DNA from: a virus
Lineage: Duplodnaviria > Caudoviricetes
Direction: 5' to 3' (one strand)
Length of the DNA: 64,000 bases
Virus record (IMG/VR): IMGVR_UViG_2706795806_000001
Span: 35,731 to 99,730 of that record
This document shows positions 19,076 through 55,330 of the stretch, piece after piece. Each line of letters begins with the position of its first letter. Positions within the stretch are counted from its first letter, which is position 1. Position numbers and translations under genes: made by a program. Under the pieces are notes generated by a model. The model did no database searches. It saw nothing but the letters and a program-made list of their open reading frames with translations, and was not told the DNA's origin.

Positions 19076-19399
19076 CTATTGTACACAAGTCTTTTGTCCA
19101 TCCGTTACAACTAAGACAGAACATTTACTGTAATCGAAATCACTGGATTTGTCTGTTTCAGCCTCTTTAGGGATACATACAACTTCATTCTTACTGTTCA
19201 GTTTGAAGTTCATCCCATTTAGTGTGCAAGTACGTCTGTCACGAGCTTGTTGATCTGGGAGGCTACGAGAGCCATCCTTATCTCTTACTGTACTGACATC
19301 TTCATCACTCTTTAATGCTGGGAAGATTATAGATGCCAAAATCCCAATAATAGCCACTACAATCATTAACTCAATTAGAGTGAAACCTTTGTTTTTCAT
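19076..19399 (-). CDS. type IV pilin-like protein (class III signal peptide)
   Basis: MKNKG/FTLIELMIVVAIIGILASIIFP prepilin cleavage/N-methylation motif with Glu+5; GGTGG RBS. Confidence 0.9.
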   Translation of the reverse strand: MKNKGFTLIELMIVVAIIGILASIIFPALKSDEDVSTVRDKDGSRSLPDQQARDRRTCTLNGMNFKLNSKNEVVCIPKEAETDKSSDFDYSKCSVLVVTDGQKTCVQ

Positions 19400-19637
19400 A
19401 ACACCACCTATGTAGTTTTTGTCCGTAGTATATTGACTCAGGACAATGTTCAAAATATCCGTAAGCCCAATAACCTACGCACTTACCTCTAGCCCAATAA
19501 GACTTCTCAGAGGTACAAGGGCTTCCCCAAGCCTCCAAGCTATCTTCGACCCTTTCAGATATTCTACCGTACCTGATTAGGAAGTACAAGGACTTTAAGA
19601 ATAAAACAAGTTTAGTATATTGTTCTGTAACAAACAT
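19371..19637 (-). CDS. hypothetical protein
   Basis: GGAGG RBS; VGYWAYGYF motif. Confidence 0.6.
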   Translation of the reverse strand: MFVTEQYTKLVLFLKSLYFLIRYGRISERVEDSLEAWGSPCTSEKSYWARGKCVGYWAYGYFEHCPESIYYGQKLHRWCYEKQRFHSN

Positions 19638-20562: not shown

Positions 20563-20802
20563 CTAAATTGGGAAAACTTTTGTTGTGTCCACAGATTTAA
20601 ATTTCTCTTGAAACTCTGCCAGAGGTCTTGAGTAGATAACTCCACCCTCACTAACATACACAACAGTTTGTGGGAAGCCAGCACGACCTGAATACTCATT
20701 AGAGATAAACAGAACTCGATACTTGTTACCTGTTTTTGTGTGGATATACTCTCTTGACATTTTTGCCAACAACTTTAAAAGTAGAAGTTTCACCATTTCC
20801 AA
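20563..20802 (-). CDS. DUF1653-like protein (start uncertain)
   Basis: YIHTKTGNKYRVL...TVVY...YSRPLAEFQEKF. Confidence 0.75.
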   Translation of the reverse strand: MEMVKLLLLKLLAKMSREYIHTKTGNKYRVLFISNEYSGRAGFPQTVVYVSEGGVIYSRPLAEFQEKFKSVDTTKVFPI

Positions 20803-20960
20803 TATACTCCTTGATGACTATAGATGTCATAACATGCAAACATCAATAGTATTGCGAAAATTACACGACACATTAATGTCGCTTGTGTTGTTGTGCAGAA
20901 ACCCTCTACCCAAACAAAAAATGCCACCAATGCCGTGAGCATTGCTACTGCTAATATCAT
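20790..20960 (-). CDS. small two-TM membrane protein (not in ORF track)
   Basis: 56-aa hydrophobic ORF filling the gap, coupled to neighbours. Confidence 0.55.
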   Translation of the reverse strand: MILAVAMLTALVAFFVWVEGFCTTTQATLMCRVIFAILLMFACYDIYSHQGVYWKW

Positions 20961-21325: not shown

Positions 21326-21512
21326 AATGATCTTGTAGTGTCTTCAGTAGGTGATTGTAATCCTTCTCCATACATTCGTCAAGAACTTTTACTATCTCAC
21401 TGCTAGTGAATCCTGACTCTTTAGCACAAGATTCCCAATGTGCCATTAATACAAAAGCATTTCCATCTTTACCTTCCAGATTACATACAGCTTTCTTATT
21501 TACAATACTCAT
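21315..21512 (-). CDS. hypothetical protein
   Basis: AGGAG RBS; GKDGNAF...DYNHLL. Confidence 0.8.
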   Translation of the reverse strand: MSIVNKKAVCNLEGKDGNAFVLMAHWESCAKESGFTSSEIVKVLDECMEKDYNHLLKTLQDHCEG

Positions 21513-21570
21513 ATTACTCTCCTAAATTAATTTCCCTCGATAGAGGGTACGAACCACGCCTGTCGGCAAC

Positions 21571-21608
21571 AAAAAAGACCTGCAAGCAGTCTAACGCTTC
21601 AGGTCTCT
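21571..21608 (-). terminator. rho-independent terminator (minus strand)
   Basis: AGACCTG...CAGGTCT hairpin with a T-run on the minus strand. Confidence 0.7.
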
Positions 21609-21612
21609 TGTG

Positions 21613-21894
21613 TCAAGTAACTTGTTCTAAAATTTTCTGGAAAAACAGCATTGCAAACAACTCATCATCATCCATACCAAGAAACCCTGATTGGTCAATC
21701 TCTTTTGCAAGACCATCAACACATCCAGATGCACCTTCAAGTAGCTCACTAAGCTCTTGTAACTGCTCTTCAGAGCAATCAGATTTAATTCCATTGAACA
21801 CATCACCAACTTTCTTCATGTCCTCTCTGAACCTAGTAGCGTTCTCAGGAGTCATATTACTTAAAGCATTCTTTGCAATATCGAAGCTAGTCAT
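21613..21894 (-). CDS. hypothetical protein
   Basis: GGAGGGAG RBS, ATG 21894. Confidence 0.7.
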   Translation of the reverse strand: MTSFDIAKNALSNMTPENATRFREDMKKVGDVFNGIKSDCSEEQLQELSELLEGASGCVDGLAKEIDQSGFLGMDDDELFAMLFFQKILEQVT

Positions 21895-22336
21895 AACTCC
21901 CTCCAGAACAACTTGAGCTTCCAGAGTCACTACCACTATCACTTGAATATGATGGTGTAGGTGAACTATATCCACCAGAGCAACGATCATCATCTCTGTG
22001 GCTGTTTGAGCTGAGAGCCGATCCCACTACCATCCCTGTCATCATGTGGTCATTTGATGTATTGTGGTGTATATGGTTAGATAACCCAGTGTGCCTACTT
22101 GAAGATACACTAGAACCAACAGAAGGCGACCTAGTTGGAATCTTAGCCTCTTGCACAATAGGTTTACTCTTCAGGCTACCAGAAACTGATACCGAACTCT
22201 TAATCACATTTATGTCAACAGGTTTCTGTGGTGAAACTTTCTTGGATTTCTTACTCATCTTTCTGAGGTACAGACCACCAAGAATTGTTAGAGATAAGAT
22301 AAATAAAATTAAAAATACTAAGCAAAATGTCGGCAT
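21887..22336 (-). CDS. membrane-anchored Ser/Gly-rich protein
   Basis: N-terminal TM helix; C-terminal SDSGSDSGSSSCSGG. Confidence 0.75.
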   Translation of the reverse strand: MPTFCLVFLILFILSLTILGGLYLRKMSKKSKKVSPQKPVDINVIKSSVSVSGSLKSKPIVQEAKIPTRSPSVGSSVSSSRHTGLSNHIHHNTSNDHMMTGMVVGSALSSNSHRDDDRCSGGYSSPTPSYSSDSGSDSGSSSCSGGSYD

Positions 22337-23482: not shown

Positions 23483-23836
23483 AATTAACTCCTTTCCGTT
23501 GAATGAGGTTGTATTATACATGACATCATGTAGAAGTCAAGACTTAATTTCATTATCTTGCACATTACAAAAGGTAACAATAATAAACTTGACAAATCAA
23601 TATTTCATGGTACTATAACTTTAGTTATCATTCTTTACGGAGTAAATTATATATTCATTAAGTTATTATCATTCTTTATTGTCTTTGTTTGTTCTTTAAG
23701 TTATTTTCTTTAAGAATAAACAAACAACTGTAATAATTATATAAATAAAATATTTAATTAATTACCAGTCAAATATATTTAATATAATAAATAATTAATT
23801 GTCAATACCTGTTTACATTTCTTTACACTAATTGTC

Positions 23837-35013: not shown

Positions 35014-35042
35014 AGGGGACATCGTTTGATGTCCTCTTTTTC
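35014..35042 (+). terminator. rho-independent terminator
   Basis: AGGGGACATC-GTTT-GATGTCCTCT followed by a T-run. Confidence 0.85.
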
Positions 35043-35070
35043 CCTTAATACTAATTGTTTGGAGTTTTTA

Positions 35071-38000
35071 ATGACTACTGTTGATAATTTAAATGGACTA
35101 GAGTTGTTATCTGGTAGATTGGTAACATTGTTCCTCACTCTAGCTGAAGCTGAAGAAGCTGTAAAAAGCCTACCTGCTGGAACACACGTAAAAGTTACTA
35201 ATGATCCTAATCCTGATCTCAATGGTGAATACACTTGGGATGGAGAGAAGTTATTAAAAACTACAAATAACACTTTAGAGAAAGCTAAAGAACAGGCTGA
35301 AGAAGTTGCACAAGAAATTATTGATCGCAATGTTACTGCAAGCCATGTCTTAGATTTACTCGAAGGGCAAATTACTGGAAGTTTACTTGATCGTCGCTTA
35401 GAGCAACGTATTGAGAAAATTCCTTCTATCGTTGGTGAGATCGAAGAACTTAAAAACGAAGTTACTACAATCAATTATGATCTTGGTGTAAAGGTTAATT
35501 ATATTAATTTTGACCTTGAGAAACTTACACAGTATGTAGAAGAGTTGGAGCTTATTGTTGACGTTGATTTCTCTGAAATTAAACAGCAAATCCAAGACCT
35601 ACATGATCAAGTCAATTCAGACTTTGAAGCTGTAAGAGTTAAGATTGATGAGTTACAAGCTCAAGTAACTGCTGACTTTGAGAAAGTTCGTCAAGAGGTT
35701 AAAGACCTACAAGCTCAAGTTGACGCTGACATTAAAAAACTTCAAAAAGAAGTTGCTGATAAGTTCCTTGAAGTGGATCAAATCAAAATTGGTTTGGACA
35801 AAGAGATTCAGGATCGTATTAGTGCTGTTAAAGCTGAGACAGAAGCTCGTGTTGAAAGCATTCGACTACTTAACGATGGATTAACAAAAGAGATTCAAGA
35901 GCGTAAAGATGGTGATCAAAAACTTCTTACAAACATTGAAAACTATAAAACATCAAACGATAAATCTTTAGCAAACGTAAGGGAGCAAGTTACTGTAGCA
36001 GTTGATACAGCGAATGCGTCAGCACAGAAAGTTGATGCCCTTGATGCTCGTGTCGTTTCTGCTGAAAATAACTCTAAAACAGCTTTAGAGAATTCTGCTA
36101 GTGCTGTGAGTAAAGTTACTGCTTTGGCAAGTGATGTTGGTGCAATGTCTGAGAAGGTAGACACCCTTGAAGCTAACGTAATTAAAGCTGTCGATGACAG
36201 TGGTAAAGCGTTGACAAACTCAGCAACTGCTATTTCACAATCTAAAACTGCTGTTGATAAAGCTAATGCTGTTTCAGAGCAAGTTAATATTGTTGAAGCT
36301 AAGTTGAATGACAAGTCTACAACATACCGAACAAATATAGCTCCTACCAAAGCTACTCACCCTAACCTATCCGTTGGGGATGTCTGGATCAACCAAGACA
36401 AGAAAAATGAGCAAAAGCGTTGGGATGGAAAAGCATGGGTTGATATCAACGATGTTCGTGTTAGTGATAATGCTACGGCTATCTCTAAGACAAATGCAAC
36501 TGTAACTGAACAGGGTAAAACTATTCAAGCAAACGTACAGAAGATTGACAGCTTAACAGCAAGTCTTGGAGACAAGGCTGATGCTTCTGCACTGACTAAA
36601 CTTGAATCAACTGTTACTAAACAAGGTACTGACATTCAAACAAACTCTGCCAATATCACTAGCCTACAAGGTCAGATTAAGGATAAGGCAGATGCTAAAG
36701 CTTTGAATGAGTTAAGCACCAAAGTTACAGAGCAAGGTGGAACTATTGCCTCTCAAGGTCAATCCATCACAGCGTTGAACAACCAAATAAAAGATAAAGC
36801 TGATGCTTCAGCCGTGACACAGCTCACAAGCACTGTCACAAAGCAAGGTGAGACCATTAATGCACAAGGTAAGCAGATCACAACTCTTGAAGGTAAGGTA
36901 GACGGTAAAGCCGATGCTACTGCTGTTACTGAGTTGAAGGCTACTGTAACCGAGCATGAAGGGAAGATCGCCACTCAAGGACAAGCCATTACATCTTTGA
37001 ATAACCAAATCAAGGATAAGGCTGATACTAAAGCTGTTACAGCACTTGAAACTAAAGTGACAAAACAGGGAGAGGATATCACAGCACAAGGTAAACAAAT
37101 TACTTCTGTTGAAGCTCAGTTGAAAGACAAGGCATCAACTCAAGCAGTTAGTACCTTAGATGCAAAAGTGAATAAGCAAGGTGAAACAATCACAGCTCAG
37201 GGACAAGCTCTAACAGGTTTGAAACAAGAAGTGGATGGTAAGGCTTCTGTACAAGCTGTTGACGAATTAAAGACAACAGTTACACAGCAAGGTAAAGATA
37301 TTACAGCACATGGACAGTCTTTGACTTCCCTGCAAAACCAAATGAAAGATAAAGCAGACGCTAAAGCTCTTACAGCTCTTGAGACCAAAGTTACCAAACA
37401 AGGTGATGATATTAAATCTCAAGGTGAGGCTATTACTTCTGTTGAAGCTCATTTGGATGGAATGATTATCGGTGGATCGAACTTAATTCGTAAAACTGAT
37501 ATTCAGGCTGGATACTTAAAATCTTATTCACCAAACGTAGTAACTTTCCCTGCACTACCAAAAGCTAGAACACCTGTTGCTAGGTCTCTTACTGGAAGTG
37601 GTGCTTCTGTTGGTGTCAATACAGTTTCTGATATCAGTTTAAAAGCTGGACAAGAATATACACTCTCATTCAGAGGGGCATCTTCTAAAGGTGCTTTCAC
37701 ATACGCTTATGTTATGTTGAATAAGTCGGGTGCTTCAAACATCCCACTACTTTTGAATAACAAACCTGTATCGAAGGTTGAGAGTGTTCTTACCTATGTT
37801 AGTGCTACATTCAAGTGTACTCATGATGTTGATACAGCTCATATCATGTTTGCTTGTAATGGTGCAGTAGCTAGTGATTGGGTTCTTGTTGCTGAACCTA
37901 TGTTGGTTGAAGGTAATACTGGAACAACATGGTCTAAGAGTATTGATGAACTTGCTGGCTCTGAAGCATTGAATGAATTAAAAGCCACTGTTGGGAAACA

Positions 38001-41000
38001 GGGAGAGACTATTACAGCTCAAGGACAGTCGATTACAGGGCTTAAACAGGAAGTAGATGGGAAAGCATCATCTCAAGCTGTAAACGAGCTTAAATCGACT
38101 GTGACACAGCAAGGAAAGGACATTGCAACTCAAGGTCAAGCGATTACTACTCTAAACAACCAAATCAAAGACAAAGCTGATGCGAAAGCATTGACAGCGT
38201 TGGAGACTAAGGTTACAGAGAACTCAGGTAAAATCGAGTCTCAAGGTACAGCATTGACAGGAGTTAAAGCTTCTCTTGGTGCTATGGATAGTGATAGTTT
38301 ACTACCTGACTACAACCTTGCTAGTCCTGACGAGTGGTTCAGTCATTATGGGTATAAGATGGAGCAGTATTTTAAGACAACTCCTAACGGAAAGGTTGGA
38401 AACACTGTTTTTAGGCATGATAGTAGTAATCCACAACCTTGCTGGAATTACAACAAAAAGCCTCTCCCAAATGACAGGAAGTATAAAGTAACAGCAAAGG
38501 TTAAAAGGTCTACTGACAGTGTAGGTGGTTCAAACTACATCACTGTTCTGTATGGAACACCTGATGGAAAATGGTCTTCAGCAAACTACACTTATGTTGG
38601 TATTGTACCTAAAGCTTCAGGAGAATGGGAAGATGTTGAAGCTATCGTAAACCTGACATCCAATAGTGATAAGTACCCTCAGATCAAGATTGGTTTTGCT
38701 ATCAATCATAACAGTACGGCTGGTATGGCTGAGTTGCAAGGGTTTAAGGTTGTTCACCTAATAGAGACAGGAGATGTAGGAAGCTCTATTGCTACTGCTG
38801 AAAGTGTTAGTAAGTTATCTGCAACAGTGACTCAGCAAGGTAATACAATCACCTCACAAGGGACTGCAATTACTGGTCTTGAGAACTCGATCAAAGACAA
38901 AGCTGATGCGAAAGCTGTCAATGAGTTAAAGACGACAGTTGAACAGCAAGGTAATGATATTAAATCACAAGGTCTTTCAATTACCAAAGTTGAAGCAAGT
39001 GTTAAAGATGTTGATATCATTGCAAAAGATTCTAAACTGTTGGCTATGTATCAAGGACAAGGTAAGCTCATTTGGGATGATCCAACATTCAAGAAGAGTG
39101 ATAACAGTATAAAGGAGTACGGAAAAAACAATGCTATTCATATTGTTGACCGAGTTCCAGTTGGGGCTGGGAATCCTACAGGCTCTACACATGAAATTCT
39201 TGATAAGATTGTTGGTGACATCAATCTAGGTAACTTCGGAATTTATCCAGCTAATCTAGCTACTGCAATTGATAAGGTATTCTTGCATAAATATGTTGCT
39301 AAAATACCTACCAATTACAGAATGACAAAAGCATCTAATGCTATTGGTGTTGGTGGTATTGACGATTTTATTGGAGACACTACTGGTACTGGTAATTATG
39401 AGGTTTATTGGAGACTTACTAGGTGTGGACAATCTGGAACTTTTAGTACAACAGGACATGTTGCATTAAAAAGAAATTCTGGAGCAATCCCAACTCCAGC
39501 TAAACCTGATGAGGTTAGGTTCGCACAAGTGGCTATTTTTGATGTCACTGATGCACCTGACTCTATCCCTAAAGAATTGTTGGATAAAGTCGATGCTAAC
39601 TCAAAAGCTATTTCATCACTTGATGCTGAAGTTAAGCGTGTAGATGGTGTTGTTGTTGCTCAAGGTAAGCAAGTTACACAACTAACAGCAGAAGTCAATA
39701 AAAAGGCTGATGGTACTGCTTTGACAGCTCTTGAAACTAAGGTTACTCAACAAGGGAAGGACATTACCTCACAAGGGCAATCCATAACTAACTTGAATAA
39801 CCAAATCAAGGATAAAGCTGATGCTTCTGCTGTCAACAGTCTTAAAACTACAGTTGATCAGCAAGGGAATGATATTAAAACTAATAGTCAAAATATCATT
39901 AACTTGAATACTAACTTAGGTAAAAAGGCAGATGCTTCTGCTGTTACTGCACTGGAAGCTGAAGTTAAAAAAGTTGATGGTAAAACTGTAACCAACAGTC
40001 AGTCTATTACAAAACTTCAAGGTCAAGTAAACACTATTGATGGAGAGGTTAAGAAAAAGGCTGACGCATCTGCTTTAAATAGCTACTACACTAAAGTTGA
40101 AGCTGATAAAGCTATTGCTGGACAAATCTCAGAGTTCAATAGCAGTCTTGTTATTGGTGGTGTAAACCAACTTTTAGATTCTGAAAGGGAGAGAAGTTCT
40201 TCTGCGACAAGTCAACGAGAATATTTCATGTATGAACGTAGTGTCTACTTGAAAGATTTCTATGACAGAAACTTAGGTAAGCCAGTGACAATCAGCTTTG
40301 AAATAAAAGTTCCTGTTGCTGGTACAGTTCAAGTTTATAGTTTTAATAATTCAGCACACACATATTCAACCTCAACACCTTCATTAAAGGCAAATGAGTG
40401 GACTTATGTGGAACTTACTGTTAAGCCAAATAAACATGGAACAACACCTGAGAATGTCGCTGGGTCAACTTTAGAGTTTTATGGTACTTACGGTACAGGA
40501 AGGATTCCAAGTGTTCGTAGGGTTCAGCTAGAGGCTGGTACAAAGGCTACAGATTGGTCAGTATCTCCTAGAGATGTATCTGAGTCATTGGAAGCTAACT
40601 CAACTGCTGTTGGTAAGGTTGAGGCTAAGACAACAGCACTTGAAGGAAAGGTTAACACCCAAGCCACTCAAATTACTGGTCTTCAAAGCCAGATAAATGG
40701 GAAGGCTGACTCTTCAGCTCTTAATAGTCTTAAAACAACTGTAGAGCAACAGGGTAATACAATCTCTTCACAAGGGACTGCAATTACTCAGGTAGAGTCA
40801 AGTGTCAACAATGCCTTGAAAGCTGTGACTGTAGAGGATACTAGAAGCAAGAACGAGTTACCTCTTTGGTACTGGACTAACCACCCAAGAAGGGTAGTAA
40901 ATGAGTTTAAGACAGCTTCAGTTATCGGTGTTACAGGTCTTGGTACTTATGTAAACCTTGAGACAAGAGTTTACTATACCGATGCTTCTGGTGGGAGTAT

Positions 41001-41676
41001 TATTCAGATTGCACATTCTGCAAATAACTCTGTTTTACAAATGGAGAGGAATAGTGTTGGTTCTGGTTCTACTGCCACATGGTCAGCTTGGAGACAACCT
41101 CTCAAGTCAATTGATGATAGTGCTAAAGCTTCGGCAACTGCTGTTAACAAACTTACAACTGATGTAACAAAGATTGATGGAAAGGTTGATGCTCAGGCAA
41201 CGGCTGTACAGCAATTAGATACAAAAGTTGGTCAGAACTCAGCAAGTATCCAAACACAAAGTCAAACGATCAATGGTATTCGTGCCAATTGGACAATGAA
41301 GATGGATGTGAATGGTTATGTTTCTGGAATTGGTGCAATGAATGATGGTAAGACATCTGAGTTCATCATTAGGGCTGACAGGTTTGCTATTGCTAATCCT
41401 ACAGGTACAGGTAAGAAGTATGGATTTGTTTATCAATCCTCACCGAAGACTTTGCCGAATGGTACAGTGATTCCAGCAGGGTTGTACATCGACAATCTTA
41501 TTCTTGGTGACATTGATGCTCGTAAAATCAATGCTGAAAGTATTAGTGCTATCAGTGCTAACTTAGGTAGGTTTGAGTCAAGTGTTGCTGGAAAAGGTAA
41601 GACTGTCATCTCTGGTACTGAGTATCAAGTTTTTGATGCCAATGGTGTTGAAAGGATTTTCTTAGGAGTTAGATAA
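35071..41676 (+). CDS. giant fibre protein: 37-aa coiled-coil repeats, several CBM-like domains, J/DUF1983-like C-terminus
   Basis: KADA..L..L...V..QG..I repeats; GGxNL...VEG..ATxW modules; WTMKMDVNGYVSGIG...FIIRADRFAI. Confidence 0.85.
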   Translation: MTTVDNLNGLELLSGRLVTLFLTLAEAEEAVKSLPAGTHVKVTNDPNPDLNGEYTWDGEKLLKTTNNTLEKAKEQAEEVAQEIIDRNVTASHVLDLLEGQITGSLLDRRLEQRIEKIPSIVGEIEELKNEVTTINYDLGVKVNYINFDLEKLTQYVEELELIVDVDFSEIKQQIQDLHDQVNSDFEAVRVKIDELQAQVTADFEKVRQEVKDLQAQVDADIKKLQKEVADKFLEVDQIKIGLDKEIQDRISAVKAETEARVESIRLLNDGLTKEIQERKDGDQKLLTNIENYKTSNDKSLANVREQVTVAVDTANASAQKVDALDARVVSAENNSKTALENSASAVSKVTALASDVGAMSEKVDTLEANVIKAVDDSGKALTNSATAISQSKTAVDKANAVSEQVNIVEAKLNDKSTTYRTNIAPTKATHPNLSVGDVWINQDKKNEQKRWDGKAWVDINDVRVSDNATAISKTNATVTEQGKTIQANVQKIDSLTASLGDKADASALTKLESTVTKQGTDIQTNSANITSLQGQIKDKADAKALNELSTKVTEQGGTIASQGQSITALNNQIKDKADASAVTQLTSTVTKQGETINAQGKQITTLEGKVDGKADATAVTELKATVTEHEGKIATQGQAITSLNNQIKDKADTKAVTALETKVTKQGEDITAQGKQITSVEAQLKDKASTQAVSTLDAKVNKQGETITAQGQALTGLKQEVDGKASVQAVDELKTTVTQQGKDITAHGQSLTSLQNQMKDKADAKALTALETKVTKQGDDIKSQGEAITSVEAHLDGMIIGGSNLIRKTDIQAGYLKSYSPNVVTFPALPKARTPVARSLTGSGASVGVNTVSDISLKAGQEYTLSFRGASSKGAFTYAYVMLNKSGASNIPLLLNNKPVSKVESVLTYVSATFKCTHDVDTAHIMFACNGAVASDWVLVAEPMLVEGNTGTTWSKSIDELAGSEALNELKATVGKQGETITAQGQSITGLKQEVDGKASSQAVNELKSTVTQQGKDIATQGQAITTLNNQIKDKADAKALTALETKVTENSGKIESQGTALTGVKASLGAMDSDSLLPDYNLASPDEWFSHYGYKMEQYFKTTPNGKVGNTVFRHDSSNPQPCWNYNKKPLPNDRKYKVTAKVKRSTDSVGGSNYITVLYGTPDGKWSSANYTYVGIVPKASGEWEDVEAIVNLTSNSDKYPQIKIGFAINHNSTAGMAELQGFKVVHLIETGDVGSSIATAESVSKLSATVTQQGNTITSQGTAITGLENSIKDKADAKAVNELKTTVEQQGNDIKSQGLSITKVEASVKDVDIIAKDSKLLAMYQGQGKLIWDDPTFKKSDNSIKEYGKNNAIHIVDRVPVGAGNPTGSTHEILDKIVGDINLGNFGIYPANLATAIDKVFLHKYVAKIPTNYRMTKASNAIGVGGIDDFIGDTTGTGNYEVYWRLTRCGQSGTFSTTGHVALKRNSGAIPTPAKPDEVRFAQVAIFDVTDAPDSIPKELLDKVDANSKAISSLDAEVKRVDGVVVAQGKQVTQLTAEVNKKADGTALTALETKVTQQGKDITSQGQSITNLNNQIKDKADASAVNSLKTTVDQQGNDIKTNSQNIINLNTNLGKKADASAVTALEAEVKKVDGKTVTNSQSITKLQGQVNTIDGEVKKKADASALNSYYTKVEADKAIAGQISEFNSSLVIGGVNQLLDSERERSSSATSQREYFMYERSVYLKDFYDRNLGKPVTISFEIKVPVAGTVQVYSFNNSAHTYSTSTPSLKANEWTYVELTVKPNKHGTTPENVAGSTLEFYGTYGTGRIPSVRRVQLEAGTKATDWSVSPRDVSESLEANSTAVGKVEAKTTALEGKVNTQATQITGLQSQINGKADSSALNSLKTTVEQQGNTISSQGTAITQVESSVNNALKAVTVEDTRSKNELPLWYWTNHPRRVVNEFKTASVIGVTGLGTYVNLETRVYYTDASGGSIIQIAHSANNSVLQMERNSVGSGSTATWSAWRQPLKSIDDSAKASATAVNKLTTDVTKIDGKVDAQATAVQQLDTKVGQNSASIQTQSQTINGIRANWTMKMDVNGYVSGIGAMNDGKTSEFIIRADRFAIANPTGTGKKYGFVYQSSPKTLPNGTVIPAGLYIDNLILGDIDARKINAESISAISANLGRFESSVAGKGKTVISGTEYQVFDANGVERIFLGVR
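36571..37458 (+). repeat. 8 tandem degenerate 111-bp coding repeats
   Basis: DKAD/GKAS starts at 36571, 36682, 36793, 36904, 37015, 37126, 37237, 37348. Confidence 0.85.
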
Positions 41677-53887: not shown

Positions 53888-55330
53888 ATGGCTATTTTAA
53901 ACGACAGTGGTATTGAGATTCAAAAACTCGAAGGTATCCTTCAGGAACTTCAATCTATCGCAAAGAAAAAGTTTGCCGATTTGGTAGACCCAAAAGATGA
54001 ATTAGATGTTAGTGACAGTTCACTTCTTGGACGTATTCTTGGTATCGTAGCAGAGCCAGAAGCATCAAATGAAGAGTTACTGTTTATGCTTTGGCAGTCA
54101 CTTGATCCTGACCAAGCTGAAGGCATCTATCTTGATAAGATTTTAAATCTTGTTGGAGTGAAAAGAAAGTCAGAAACCAGAGGATATTCAGGCTTGATGC
54201 TTCACGGTAAAATGGGTGCAACAGTTCCAGAAAAGAGTATGGTTTCAAGTAACTTGACAGGTGATGTATTCGAGACAACAACAGGAGTTACTTTCTCTAA
54301 TACAGATACAAACGGTGTAGTTGTCAAGATTGAAACTATTGTCCCTAACACAGTATATAAACTAGGTTATACAAGCACTTACGGAACTAACACATACCCA
54401 ACGATCACAACAAGAAGTGTTGAAGGTGACACAAAAGAGATGGTTGCTAGGCGTTTTATGGAGACTGTGAATAGTAGTTCTACACTCCTTGAAGCTACAG
54501 TTGACAATGATGACAACATTAAAGTTGTTTTTAAGAATCAAAACTACATTGGAAACTTCACAGCACAGACAGATGGTATTAAGTTGATTGAGAGTTTCAT
54601 GCCTGTTTCAAGTATCTCTATCACAGCAGATGCTGTTCGTCAAGCATCTAATACACTTGATGTTATGCAAACTTCTGTTGTTGGTTGGATTGGGGTTACA
54701 AACCCATTTGACAGTATTGCCAGTGAGCCGAAAGAGGATGACGTAGCATTTAGAACAAGAGGAAGATTCTCTCGTGGGATGAAGTCAGTAAGTAACCGAG
54801 TTTCAATGTACTCAGACTTATATGATCTTGATGGTGTTCGTTTTGTCAATATCAAAGAGAATATCTATGATAACCCTGCTGGTGGTAGAAGCTCTAAAGG
54901 TATTTCTGTAGTTGTTCTTGGTGGTAATGATCAAGACATTGCACAAACTATCTTTAACAACCTTCCTTTAGGATGTGCAACAGATGGAGTTCTTGAAGAG
55001 CCTGTATACGACGAAGCTGGTGTAACTAAAGTTAAGTTCAGTCGTCCAGAAGTTGTTGATGTTGTGATTAGTATCTCACTATCTGCTGACAGCACTTTCC
55101 CTCAAAACGGTAAGGTACTTATTCAAGAGGCAATAGTGCGCCACATTGATTCGCTTGATGTTGGTGATTCAATTGTTTGGTCTAAACTGTTTAGTCCTAT
55201 CAATGAAGTTAAAGGTCAGAGTGTCAATAGTTTACTTATTGGTAAGAAAGGAGAGCCACTAACTTCAGGAAATATCGACCTTAACTTCAACCAAATTCCT
55301 TCAATTTCATTTGAAAACATCGACATTTAA
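53888..55330 (+). CDS. baseplate J-like protein
   Basis: AEGIYLD, EDDVAFRTR, VVLGGNDQDIA. Confidence 0.9.
   Translation: MAILNDSGIEIQKLEGILQELQSIAKKKFADLVDPKDELDVSDSSLLGRILGIVAEPEASNEELLFMLWQSLDPDQAEGIYLDKILNLVGVKRKSETRGYSGLMLHGKMGATVPEKSMVSSNLTGDVFETTTGVTFSNTDTNGVVVKIETIVPNTVYKLGYTSTYGTNTYPTITTRSVEGDTKEMVARRFMETVNSSSTLLEATVDNDDNIKVVFKNQNYIGNFTAQTDGIKLIESFMPVSSISITADAVRQASNTLDVMQTSVVGWIGVTNPFDSIASEPKEDDVAFRTRGRFSRGMKSVSNRVSMYSDLYDLDGVRFVNIKENIYDNPAGGRSSKGISVVVLGGNDQDIAQTIFNNLPLGCATDGVLEEPVYDEAGVTKVKFSRPEVVDVVISISLSADSTFPQNGKVLIQEAIVRHIDSLDVGDSIVWSKLFSPINEVKGQSVNSLLIGKKGEPLTSGNIDLNFNQIPSISFENIDI

Follow-up and report, generated by a model that had tools for sequence, protein, structure and literature searches.

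The prophage protein P-FimU of F10-like Pseudomonas phages interacts with minor pilins, enters the pilus tip, and blocks tip-binding phages (PMC12952977). It is a full-sized and highly diverse protein with a FimU-like fold, which is expressed from the prophage and leaves pilus function intact. Sztanko et al. (2026) found that four groups of virulent phages also encode PilA-like proteins, which measure only about 60 residues in one of the groups, and proposed that these proteins either enter the pilus without phage-binding sites or inhibit its assembly, by analogy with the superinfection exclusion of T4 (PMC12952977). The gene analyzed here, ORF097 of the Acinetobacter phage vB_AbaM_Acibel004, has been annotated as PilE-like since 2014, through COG4968 and an HHpred match to d.24.1; the main text of that paper is silent on it (PMC4128745). 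The pilin likeness of this gene and the idea of exclusion or assembly block for the PilA-like proteins of virulent phages are therefore already known. The new results are that ORF097 belongs to a tiny, phage-only family with an inverted pattern of conservation, that it consists of a PilE-type stalk with a degenerate middle and an orphan four-cysteine head, and that this head has a lipoprotein-anchored relative.

How do the described phage pilins compare with ORF097? Our tblastn searches detected pilin-like N termini in 104 phage records, mostly those of Synechococcus, Vibrio, and Aeromonas phages, and short ORFs resembling pilins are found repeatedly among virulent phages whose piliated hosts belong to Pseudomonas, Vibrio, Aeromonas, Synechococcus, and Delftia. 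In the Nankokuvirus Pseudomonas phage vB_PaeM_PAO1_Ab11 (LN610583, a record with no annotation at all), we observed a headless, unannotated prepilin-like ORF of 59 residues (L007:1495-1674, plus strand), in which the leader MKRKKG precedes FTLTE. It is probably one of the “truncated PilA” proteins of Sztanko et al. The T4-like Vibrio phage CZ01 (PV740454) carries a 60-residue prepilin-like ORF directly upstream of the thymidylate synthase gene (L006:1501-1683, plus strand; “hypothetical protein”). Like ORF097, the stubs of the PAO1_Ab11 type are encoded by a virulent myophage and have a hydrophobic stalk with Glu+5 behind a short basic leader that ends in Gly-1, and the same idea of exclusion or assembly block has been put forward. 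However, the stubs are headless and end soon after the stalk, while ORF097 adds a 60-residue, four-cysteine head under strong purifying selection. P-FimU and ORF097 are alike in being phage-encoded pilins with a complete prepilin signal, but ORF097, as a protein of a virulent phage, reaches half that size, lacks FimU or GspH similarity, and has an almost invariant head. T4 Imm and Sp, together with the T5 lipoprotein Llp, are small early non-virion envelope proteins of virulent phages as well; unlike ORF097, they use no prepilin signal. Searches of PHROGs and Pfam revealed no similarity of ORF097 to Imm, Sp, Llp, or Cor, and no fold similarity to them was found either.

The stretch of DNA that we analyzed as a whole, hereafter called the window, comprises 64,000 nucleotides and corresponds to bases 35,731-99,730 of a virus record that is complete at 99,730 bp. 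The terminase of this phage shares 74% identity with the terminases of Acinetobacter myophages of roughly 100 kb. The published genome of vB_AbaM_Acibel004 is 99,730 bp long with 37.3% G+C, and shares many proteins with the PAK_P1/KPP10 phage group (PMC4128745). The earlier note on this DNA had called the phage lytic, in agreement with the published description of Acibel004 as virulent and devoid of lysogeny genes (PMC4128745). It had also stated that the window contains no other genes for type IV pili or type II secretion. This holds for the entire 99,730-bp genome, which contains a single N_methyl match, no prepilin peptidase (Peptidase_A24), and no pilus or secretion ATPase (T2SSE). Therapeutic cocktails and magistral preparations in Belgium have included Acibel004 (PMC4128745), and its receptor is not reported in the papers that we consulted. 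The host species, A. baumannii, encodes PilD, the full set of type IV pilus genes, and the PilSR system (PMC8088505).

ORF097 reads on the minus strand, from an ATG at 19399 to a stop codon at 19076-19078. Table S2 of the Acibel004 paper lists it at 54,806-55,129 on the minus strand, with 324 bp and 107 residues (PMC4128745), and these coordinates equal window 19076-19399 plus 35,730. The gene and its parts, numbered by protein residue, are as follows.

19076-19399, minus strand: coding sequence of the mini-pilin (Acibel004 ORF097, 107 residues plus stop), from the ORF list and translation.
19404-19409, minus strand: Shine-Dalgarno-like AGGTGG, 4 nt upstream of the ORF097 ATG, read from the sequence.
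19385-19399, minus strand: class III (prepilin) leader MKNKG, with Gly-1 of the predicted PilD site as its last residue, from Pfam N_methyl and TIGR02532.
19313-19384, minus strand: hydrophobic stalk, the first half of the pilin alpha-1 helix, residues 6-29, from hydropathy, E10, and P27.
19259-19312, minus strand: charged linker, residues 30-47, a putative degenerate second half of the alpha-1 helix, from hhalign.
19166-19258, minus strand: head core, residues 48-78, a helix and beta-hairpin with C58 and C75, the most conserved segment.
19079-19165, minus strand: second half of the head, residues 79-107, a variable acidic loop and C-terminal hairpin with C93 and C105, from the alignments.

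The homologous genes carry AAGGAG or GGGAG at the position of AGGTGG, and those in L002, L003, and L004 have in-frame stop codons 6-10 codons upstream of the same ATG. The ribosome-binding sequence and these upstream stops together make the start of ORF097 secure. A longer, type IVb-like leader from an upstream TTG is ruled out by the in-frame stops in the homologues. With the ATG thus fixed, the leaders are short, basic, and type IVa-like (MKNKG, MNKG, MGSKG, and MSSKG). The composition of the gene (38% G+C, as compared to 37.2% in the window) shows no sign of a recent capture from the host.

The N terminus of ORF097 carries a genuine prepilin motif, well above chance. The earlier note had recognized the PilD site and Glu+5 behind MKNKG, and this reading is borne out. 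Residues 2-26 score 38.7 bits with Pfam N_methyl (PF07963, E 5.9e-10), for which the cut-off is 21.2, and 38.6 bits with TIGR02532, for which it is 16.3. The leader is directly followed by the F-T-L-I-E motif. In the alignment of the eight full-length family members, Gly-1 and Glu+5 (E10 in ORF097) are invariant, and residue +1 is phenylalanine in seven and isoleucine in one. A proline is kept at position +22 (P27 in ORF097) across the homologues, and at +23 in P0008. Residues 7-25 form the sole hydrophobic segment of the protein (mean Kyte-Doolittle value 2.7), and the remainder is hydrophilic; consistently, the AF2 model places a helix at residues 8-30. A role as a substrate of the host PilD fits all of the sequence evidence, with cleavage predicted at this site. 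According to Strom and Lory (1991), Glu+5 is reportedly dispensable for cleavage and required for methylation and assembly. Its invariance in this family therefore argues for contact with the pilin-handling machinery, rather than plain anchoring in the membrane.

From which kind of pilin does ORF097 derive? When the full-length family was aligned by hhalign with twelve pilins of the PilE/ComP type (PF16732), residues 1-53 aligned with a probability of 99.4%. The linker at residues 30-47, which contains glycine and proline and is modeled by AF2 as coil with pLDDT below 50, can thus be regarded as the degenerate second half of the alpha-1 helix. The distant homologue P0048 has kept a canonical stalk, “IPAYQQYKENQ”, where ORF097 has the linker, and BLAST pairs “ARDRRTC.LNGMNF” of the ORF097 family with “ARQERYF..NNAY” of the PilE/ComP-type pilins. 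A profile search of the PDB aligned only the stalk with confidence. The GspG and GspH models reached 34 bits (cut-off 88.85) and 33.5 bits (cut-off 80), respectively, each over the N-terminal 35 residues only, with no full-length pseudopilin match, and the other NCBIfam pilin and pseudopilin models likewise covered only the first 30-35 residues, with scores far below their cut-offs. The PilE/ComP-type pilins (COG4968, PF16732) share a homologous stalk with residues 1-53 of ORF097, but their mature length is about 130-150 residues, as compared to 102 in ORF097, the ORF097 head has no profile similarity to theirs, and the conservation is inverted. Descent from a PilA/PilE-type type IVa pilin that was reduced to a mini-pilin forms part of the explanation that we favor, which we hold with slightly less than even confidence.

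The head, on the other hand, matched no known family or fold in our searches. The earlier note had described it as a short four-cysteine domain unlike a normal pilin head, and this description stands, with the qualification that residues 30-53 still align to the second half of the PilE-type stalk. Pfam detected no family besides N_methyl in ORF097 at E<=1, and thus no pilin-head family, and a head-only alignment against the same twelve PF16732 proteins yielded an hhalign probability of 0.4%. In the AF2 model, a helix at residues 48-60 is followed by hairpins at 63-67/73-77 and 95-99/102-106. The mean pLDDT is moderate, at 66 for the full-length protein and 71 for the head alone, and reaches 83-90 in the head core. 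A pilin head typically packs alpha-1C against an antiparallel sheet of four strands and in most cases carries a C-terminal disulfide loop. A helix with four short strands, at these pLDDT values, is compatible with a minimal alpha-beta pilin head. The full-length model retrieved only generic long-helix matches in Foldseek (best E 0.66) and VIA-align (best Z 3.8), the head-only model retrieved no pilin in either program (best VIA-align Z 2.1), and a search of the ESM Atlas gave no usable match. The top Foldseek matches of the head-only model consisted of scorpion toxins, with 28-residue helix-hairpins at E about 0.7. We regard this as a generic helix-hairpin likeness, not homology, and the cysteine pattern of the cysteine-stabilized alpha-beta fold is absent from the ORF097 head. 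A DNA-binding head like that of ComP or FimT is unsupported, as the head has nine basic and nine acidic residues.

The four cysteines, C58, C75, C93, and C105, are invariant in all eight full-length members. They probably pair as C58-C75 and C93-C105; P0052, a relative with only the first half of the head, has the first pair only. The C93-x11-C105 spacing, followed by two residues, appears to resemble the C-terminal disulfide loop of the type IVa pilins.

As a general rule for pilins, the stalk is conserved and the head is variable. In the ORF097 family, this pattern is inverted, with a variable stalk and a near-fixed head core. The mean pairwise identity is 0.59 in the stalk (residues 6-29), 0.57 in the linker (residues 30-47), 0.85 in the helix and hairpin (residues 48-78), and 0.65 in the C-terminal hairpin (residues 93-107). 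In a bacterial PilE-like comparison set, the corresponding values are 0.87 for the stalk, which is inflated because the set was picked by stalk similarity, and 0.27 for the head. The seven closest homologues have identical residues 45-68, although their codons there carry many silent changes. In pairwise comparisons, the C-terminal domain shows 20-27 synonymous and 15-20 non-synonymous codon differences, and silent variation occurs at invariant residues, such as R45 (CGT/AGA), L47 (CTC/CTT), R55 (AGA/AGG/CGT), and G62 (GGG/GGA/GGT). The frequent silent changes at invariant residues indicate that the protein is real and that the head core is under strong purifying selection. A constraint from an overlapping DNA or RNA element is ruled out, since the silent sites vary freely.

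Such a pattern is not as expected of a subunit that packs into a filament. Another possibility is that ORF097 acts like P-FimU, as a replacement subunit that would be built into working pili, at the tip or in the shaft, and would alter the surface recognized by phages while pilus function is kept. P-FimU itself provides a precedent (PMC12952977), the prepilin signal of ORF097 is complete, and the C93-x11-C105 loop near the C terminus is reminiscent of a pilin. However, no pilin head matches the ORF097 head, which is about half as large as any of them, the middle of the stalk has degenerated into a linker containing glycine and proline, and a subunit exposed at the surface should diversify, in contrast to the nearly invariant head. 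Moreover, a virulent phage would have little time to rebuild pili. We therefore consider a replacement subunit very unlikely.

Where else does the head occur? Using a profile search of 5.8 billion protein clusters and an exhaustive phmmer search of 1.84 billion representatives, with the head as the query and no word index, we found the head in only nine protein clusters, each on phage-like DNA. Of these, seven (64-99% identity) belong to relatives within the same phage lineage that have kept the gene order (L002 and L003). The eighth, P0048 (45% identity), comes from the more distant contig L004, in which the upstream neighbor is kept, and the ninth, P0052 (67 residues), comes from L005, a short contig whose other genes match phage families. 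The head has no additional copy in IMG/VR or in a set of 185,579 bacterial and archaeal genomes, one per species, and in bacteria the matches were confined to the stalk. The other Acinetobacter phages in GenBank lack the gene, including the closest relatives, Saclayvirus and phiAbaA1, which indicates that ORF097 is dispensable for phages of the Acibel004 type. Three giant surface proteins (P0049-P0051, E 1e-6 to 5e-4) were rejected as relatives, because they consist of cysteine-free tandem repeats scoring about 30 bits each, and the summed score is one chance resemblance multiplied over the repeats.

P0052 (L005:778-981, plus strand) is a predicted lipoprotein, which has no pilin stalk and instead begins with a hydrophobic stretch and the lipobox LSGC. 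Its mature part is 54% identical to residues 42-78 of ORF097 over 37 residues, including both C58 and C75 and the “NEVVCIPK” strand, with E-values of 9.8e-4 database-wide and 2e-13 pairwise. We consider, with moderate confidence, that it is homologous to the first half of the ORF097 head. If this link is real, then the function of the head core does not require access to the pilus platform. The inverted conservation and the lipoprotein homologue together suggest that the head binds a conserved partner, which is not necessarily the pilus, and they complicate the simple “decoy subunit” picture. The earlier note had supposed that the protein enters or jams the pilus and would thereby exclude pilus-dependent phages, block competence, or shield progeny from re-adsorption; we keep this as a hypothesis, which is in print for similar proteins of virulent phages (PMC12952977).

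These observations bear on the main rival of the explanation that we favor, in which ORF097 would be an envelope effector whose stalk, cleaved or not, is a mere inner-membrane anchor, with the head acting on a periplasmic target unrelated to pili. It could block the entry of a superinfecting genome or the tail lysozyme, in the manner of T4 Imm and Sp, or mask an outer-membrane receptor from the inside, in the manner of T5 Llp, which the lipoprotein-anchored P0052 recalls. A head that is fixed above a stalk free to vary is what such an effector would display, the same helix-hairpin module stands behind a lipobox on a phage-like contig, and the head is absent both from the genomes of the species searched and from known pilin families. 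On the other side, a plain anchor needs neither a charged Glu+5 within its membrane segment nor a proline at +22/+23, and both have been kept in eight diverged sequences. In addition, the P0052 link is one match of 37 residues, and the resemblance to Imm, Sp, Llp, and Cor has no counterpart in PHROGs or Pfam. On these grounds, the anchored effector is a possible but rather unlikely explanation.

The anchor swap would also allow a broader reading, namely that the four-cysteine head is a portable periplasmic inhibitor module carried on interchangeable envelope anchors, and that a pilin stalk was exapted to deliver it to the platform of the type IV pilus or the type II secretion system. We regard this as improbable. 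If true, ORF097 would represent a novel family of phage effectors in the envelope, directed at a defined host target and carried by a phage used for therapy. If ORF097 is only a membrane-anchored exclusion factor, then it is an ordinary member of a crowded class.

The conserved features of the stalk could alternatively serve signaling. The processed stalk would imitate a full pilin pool and, by contacting the sensor kinase PilS within the membrane or through the Pil-Chp system, turn off the transcription of pilA and other pilin-responsive genes without entering a filament. In the published model, membrane-located PilA binds PilS directly and represses pilA (PMC6058289, PMC8088505), and A. baumannii needs its PilSR for piliation and transformation (PMC8088505). 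Glu+5 and Pro+22 are kept, and the headless phage pilins of 59-60 residues could act through the stalk only. Nevertheless, this explanation leaves the most conserved part of the protein, the head, without a role, the stalk varies at many positions, and a transcriptional route would be slow for a virulent phage. We judge such a mimic to be a slim prospect, and the accompanying reprogramming of host surface behavior to be equally so.

We tentatively favor, at just under an even chance, the explanation that ORF097 is a PilD-matured inner-membrane mini-pilin, whose head would bind a conserved periplasmic partner and disable the type IV pili or the type II secretion system. The invariant Glu+5 and the proline at +22/+23 suggest that the stalk still communicates with the pilin-handling machinery, and the fixed head points to a conserved periplasmic partner. 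The scores of the prepilin signal, the alignment with PilE-type stalks, the purifying selection on the head core, the place of the gene in the early module, the lack of a peptidase or assembly ATPase in the phage, the pilus gene set of the host, and the precedents in other phages also speak for this explanation. Against it stand the inverted conservation, the lipoprotein-anchored homologue, the lack of similarity to pilin heads, the moderate confidence of the AF2 models, the absence of the gene from the closest Acinetobacter relatives, and the terminator T08. We propose the following sequence of events.

Membrane insertion: After infection, ORF097 would insert into the inner membrane such that the N terminus lies on the cytoplasmic side and the C terminus on the periplasmic side, and the host PilD would remove the MKNKG leader.

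Assembly block: The processed stalk would then reach the sites used by pilins, which could be the PilC/PilMNOP assembly platform, the minor-pilin priming complex, or the pilin pool. There, the small head, presumably locked by two periplasmic disulfides, would bind a conserved periplasmic partner that belongs to either the type IV pilus or the related machine for type II secretion, and thereby stall or cap assembly.

Consequences for the cell: The infected cell would be left without functional pili, so that pilus-dependent competitors would be shut out. One candidate competitor is the ssRNA phage AP205, a pilus-dependent Acinetobacter phage (PMC10980823). The loss of pili would also stop DNA uptake and twitching.

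Acinetobacter uses its type IV pili for twitching, adhesion, and natural transformation, the last of which spreads resistance genes, and some phages use these pili as receptors. If ORF097 shuts down the pili or type II secretion in infected cells, then it would be a compact natural inhibitor of a machine for virulence and gene uptake. Such a shutdown, if true, would explain the pilin stubs in many virulent phages of piliated bacteria, and would bear on the interference between phages within a cocktail. The inverted conservation and the anchor swap provide a sharp and cheap experimental handle on ORF097.

When would ORF097 be produced? Its region lies in the published “early genes” module, and mass spectrometry of the virion, which identified 26 proteins, did not detect the ORF097 product (PMC4128745). 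The elements that surround the gene are as follows.

23503-23546 (59276-59233 of the genome), minus strand: sigma-70-type promoter TTGACT-16-TATAAT, corresponding to P25, from the top scan hit (23513-23540) and the published Table S3A.
21568-21605, minus strand: published terminator T08, between P25 and ORF097-ORF105.
19371-19637, minus strand: ORF098 (88 residues), the conserved upstream neighbor, which overlaps the start of the mini-pilin gene by 29 nt.

P25 heads the minus-strand early block containing ORF097 and is the strongest minus-strand sigma-70-type promoter in our scan; it is also the only published promoter of this block (PMC4128745). Since T08 lies between P25 and ORF097, the downstream half of the block requires either read-through or an internal or unlisted promoter. 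ORF097 is likely expressed early in infection. Promoter-like sites are also seen inside the early block, at window 21354-21382 and 20801-20830.

ORF098 is syntenic with the mini-pilin gene in L002, L003, and the distant L004, and the syntenic copies share a Trp/Tyr-rich motif, SYWARG..VGYWAYGY. Pfam yielded no match for ORF098, and PHROGs yielded a weak one for the L004 copy alone. From its position, ORF098 may be a translationally coupled partner of the mini-pilin. No functional clue came from the genes around ORF097.

Two other genes in the window deserve a brief description. ORF106 (149 residues, window 21887-22336, minus strand), inside the “early” block, encodes a protein with an N-terminal membrane segment and a Ser-rich tail, which is nonetheless in the virion mass-spectrometry list of Table S6A (PMC4128745). 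Directly after the major capsid gene, an ORF of 2,216 residues (window 35026-41676, plus strand), very large for a 100-kb phage, corresponds to the published ORF123, a “tail component” of 237 kDa (PMC4128745).
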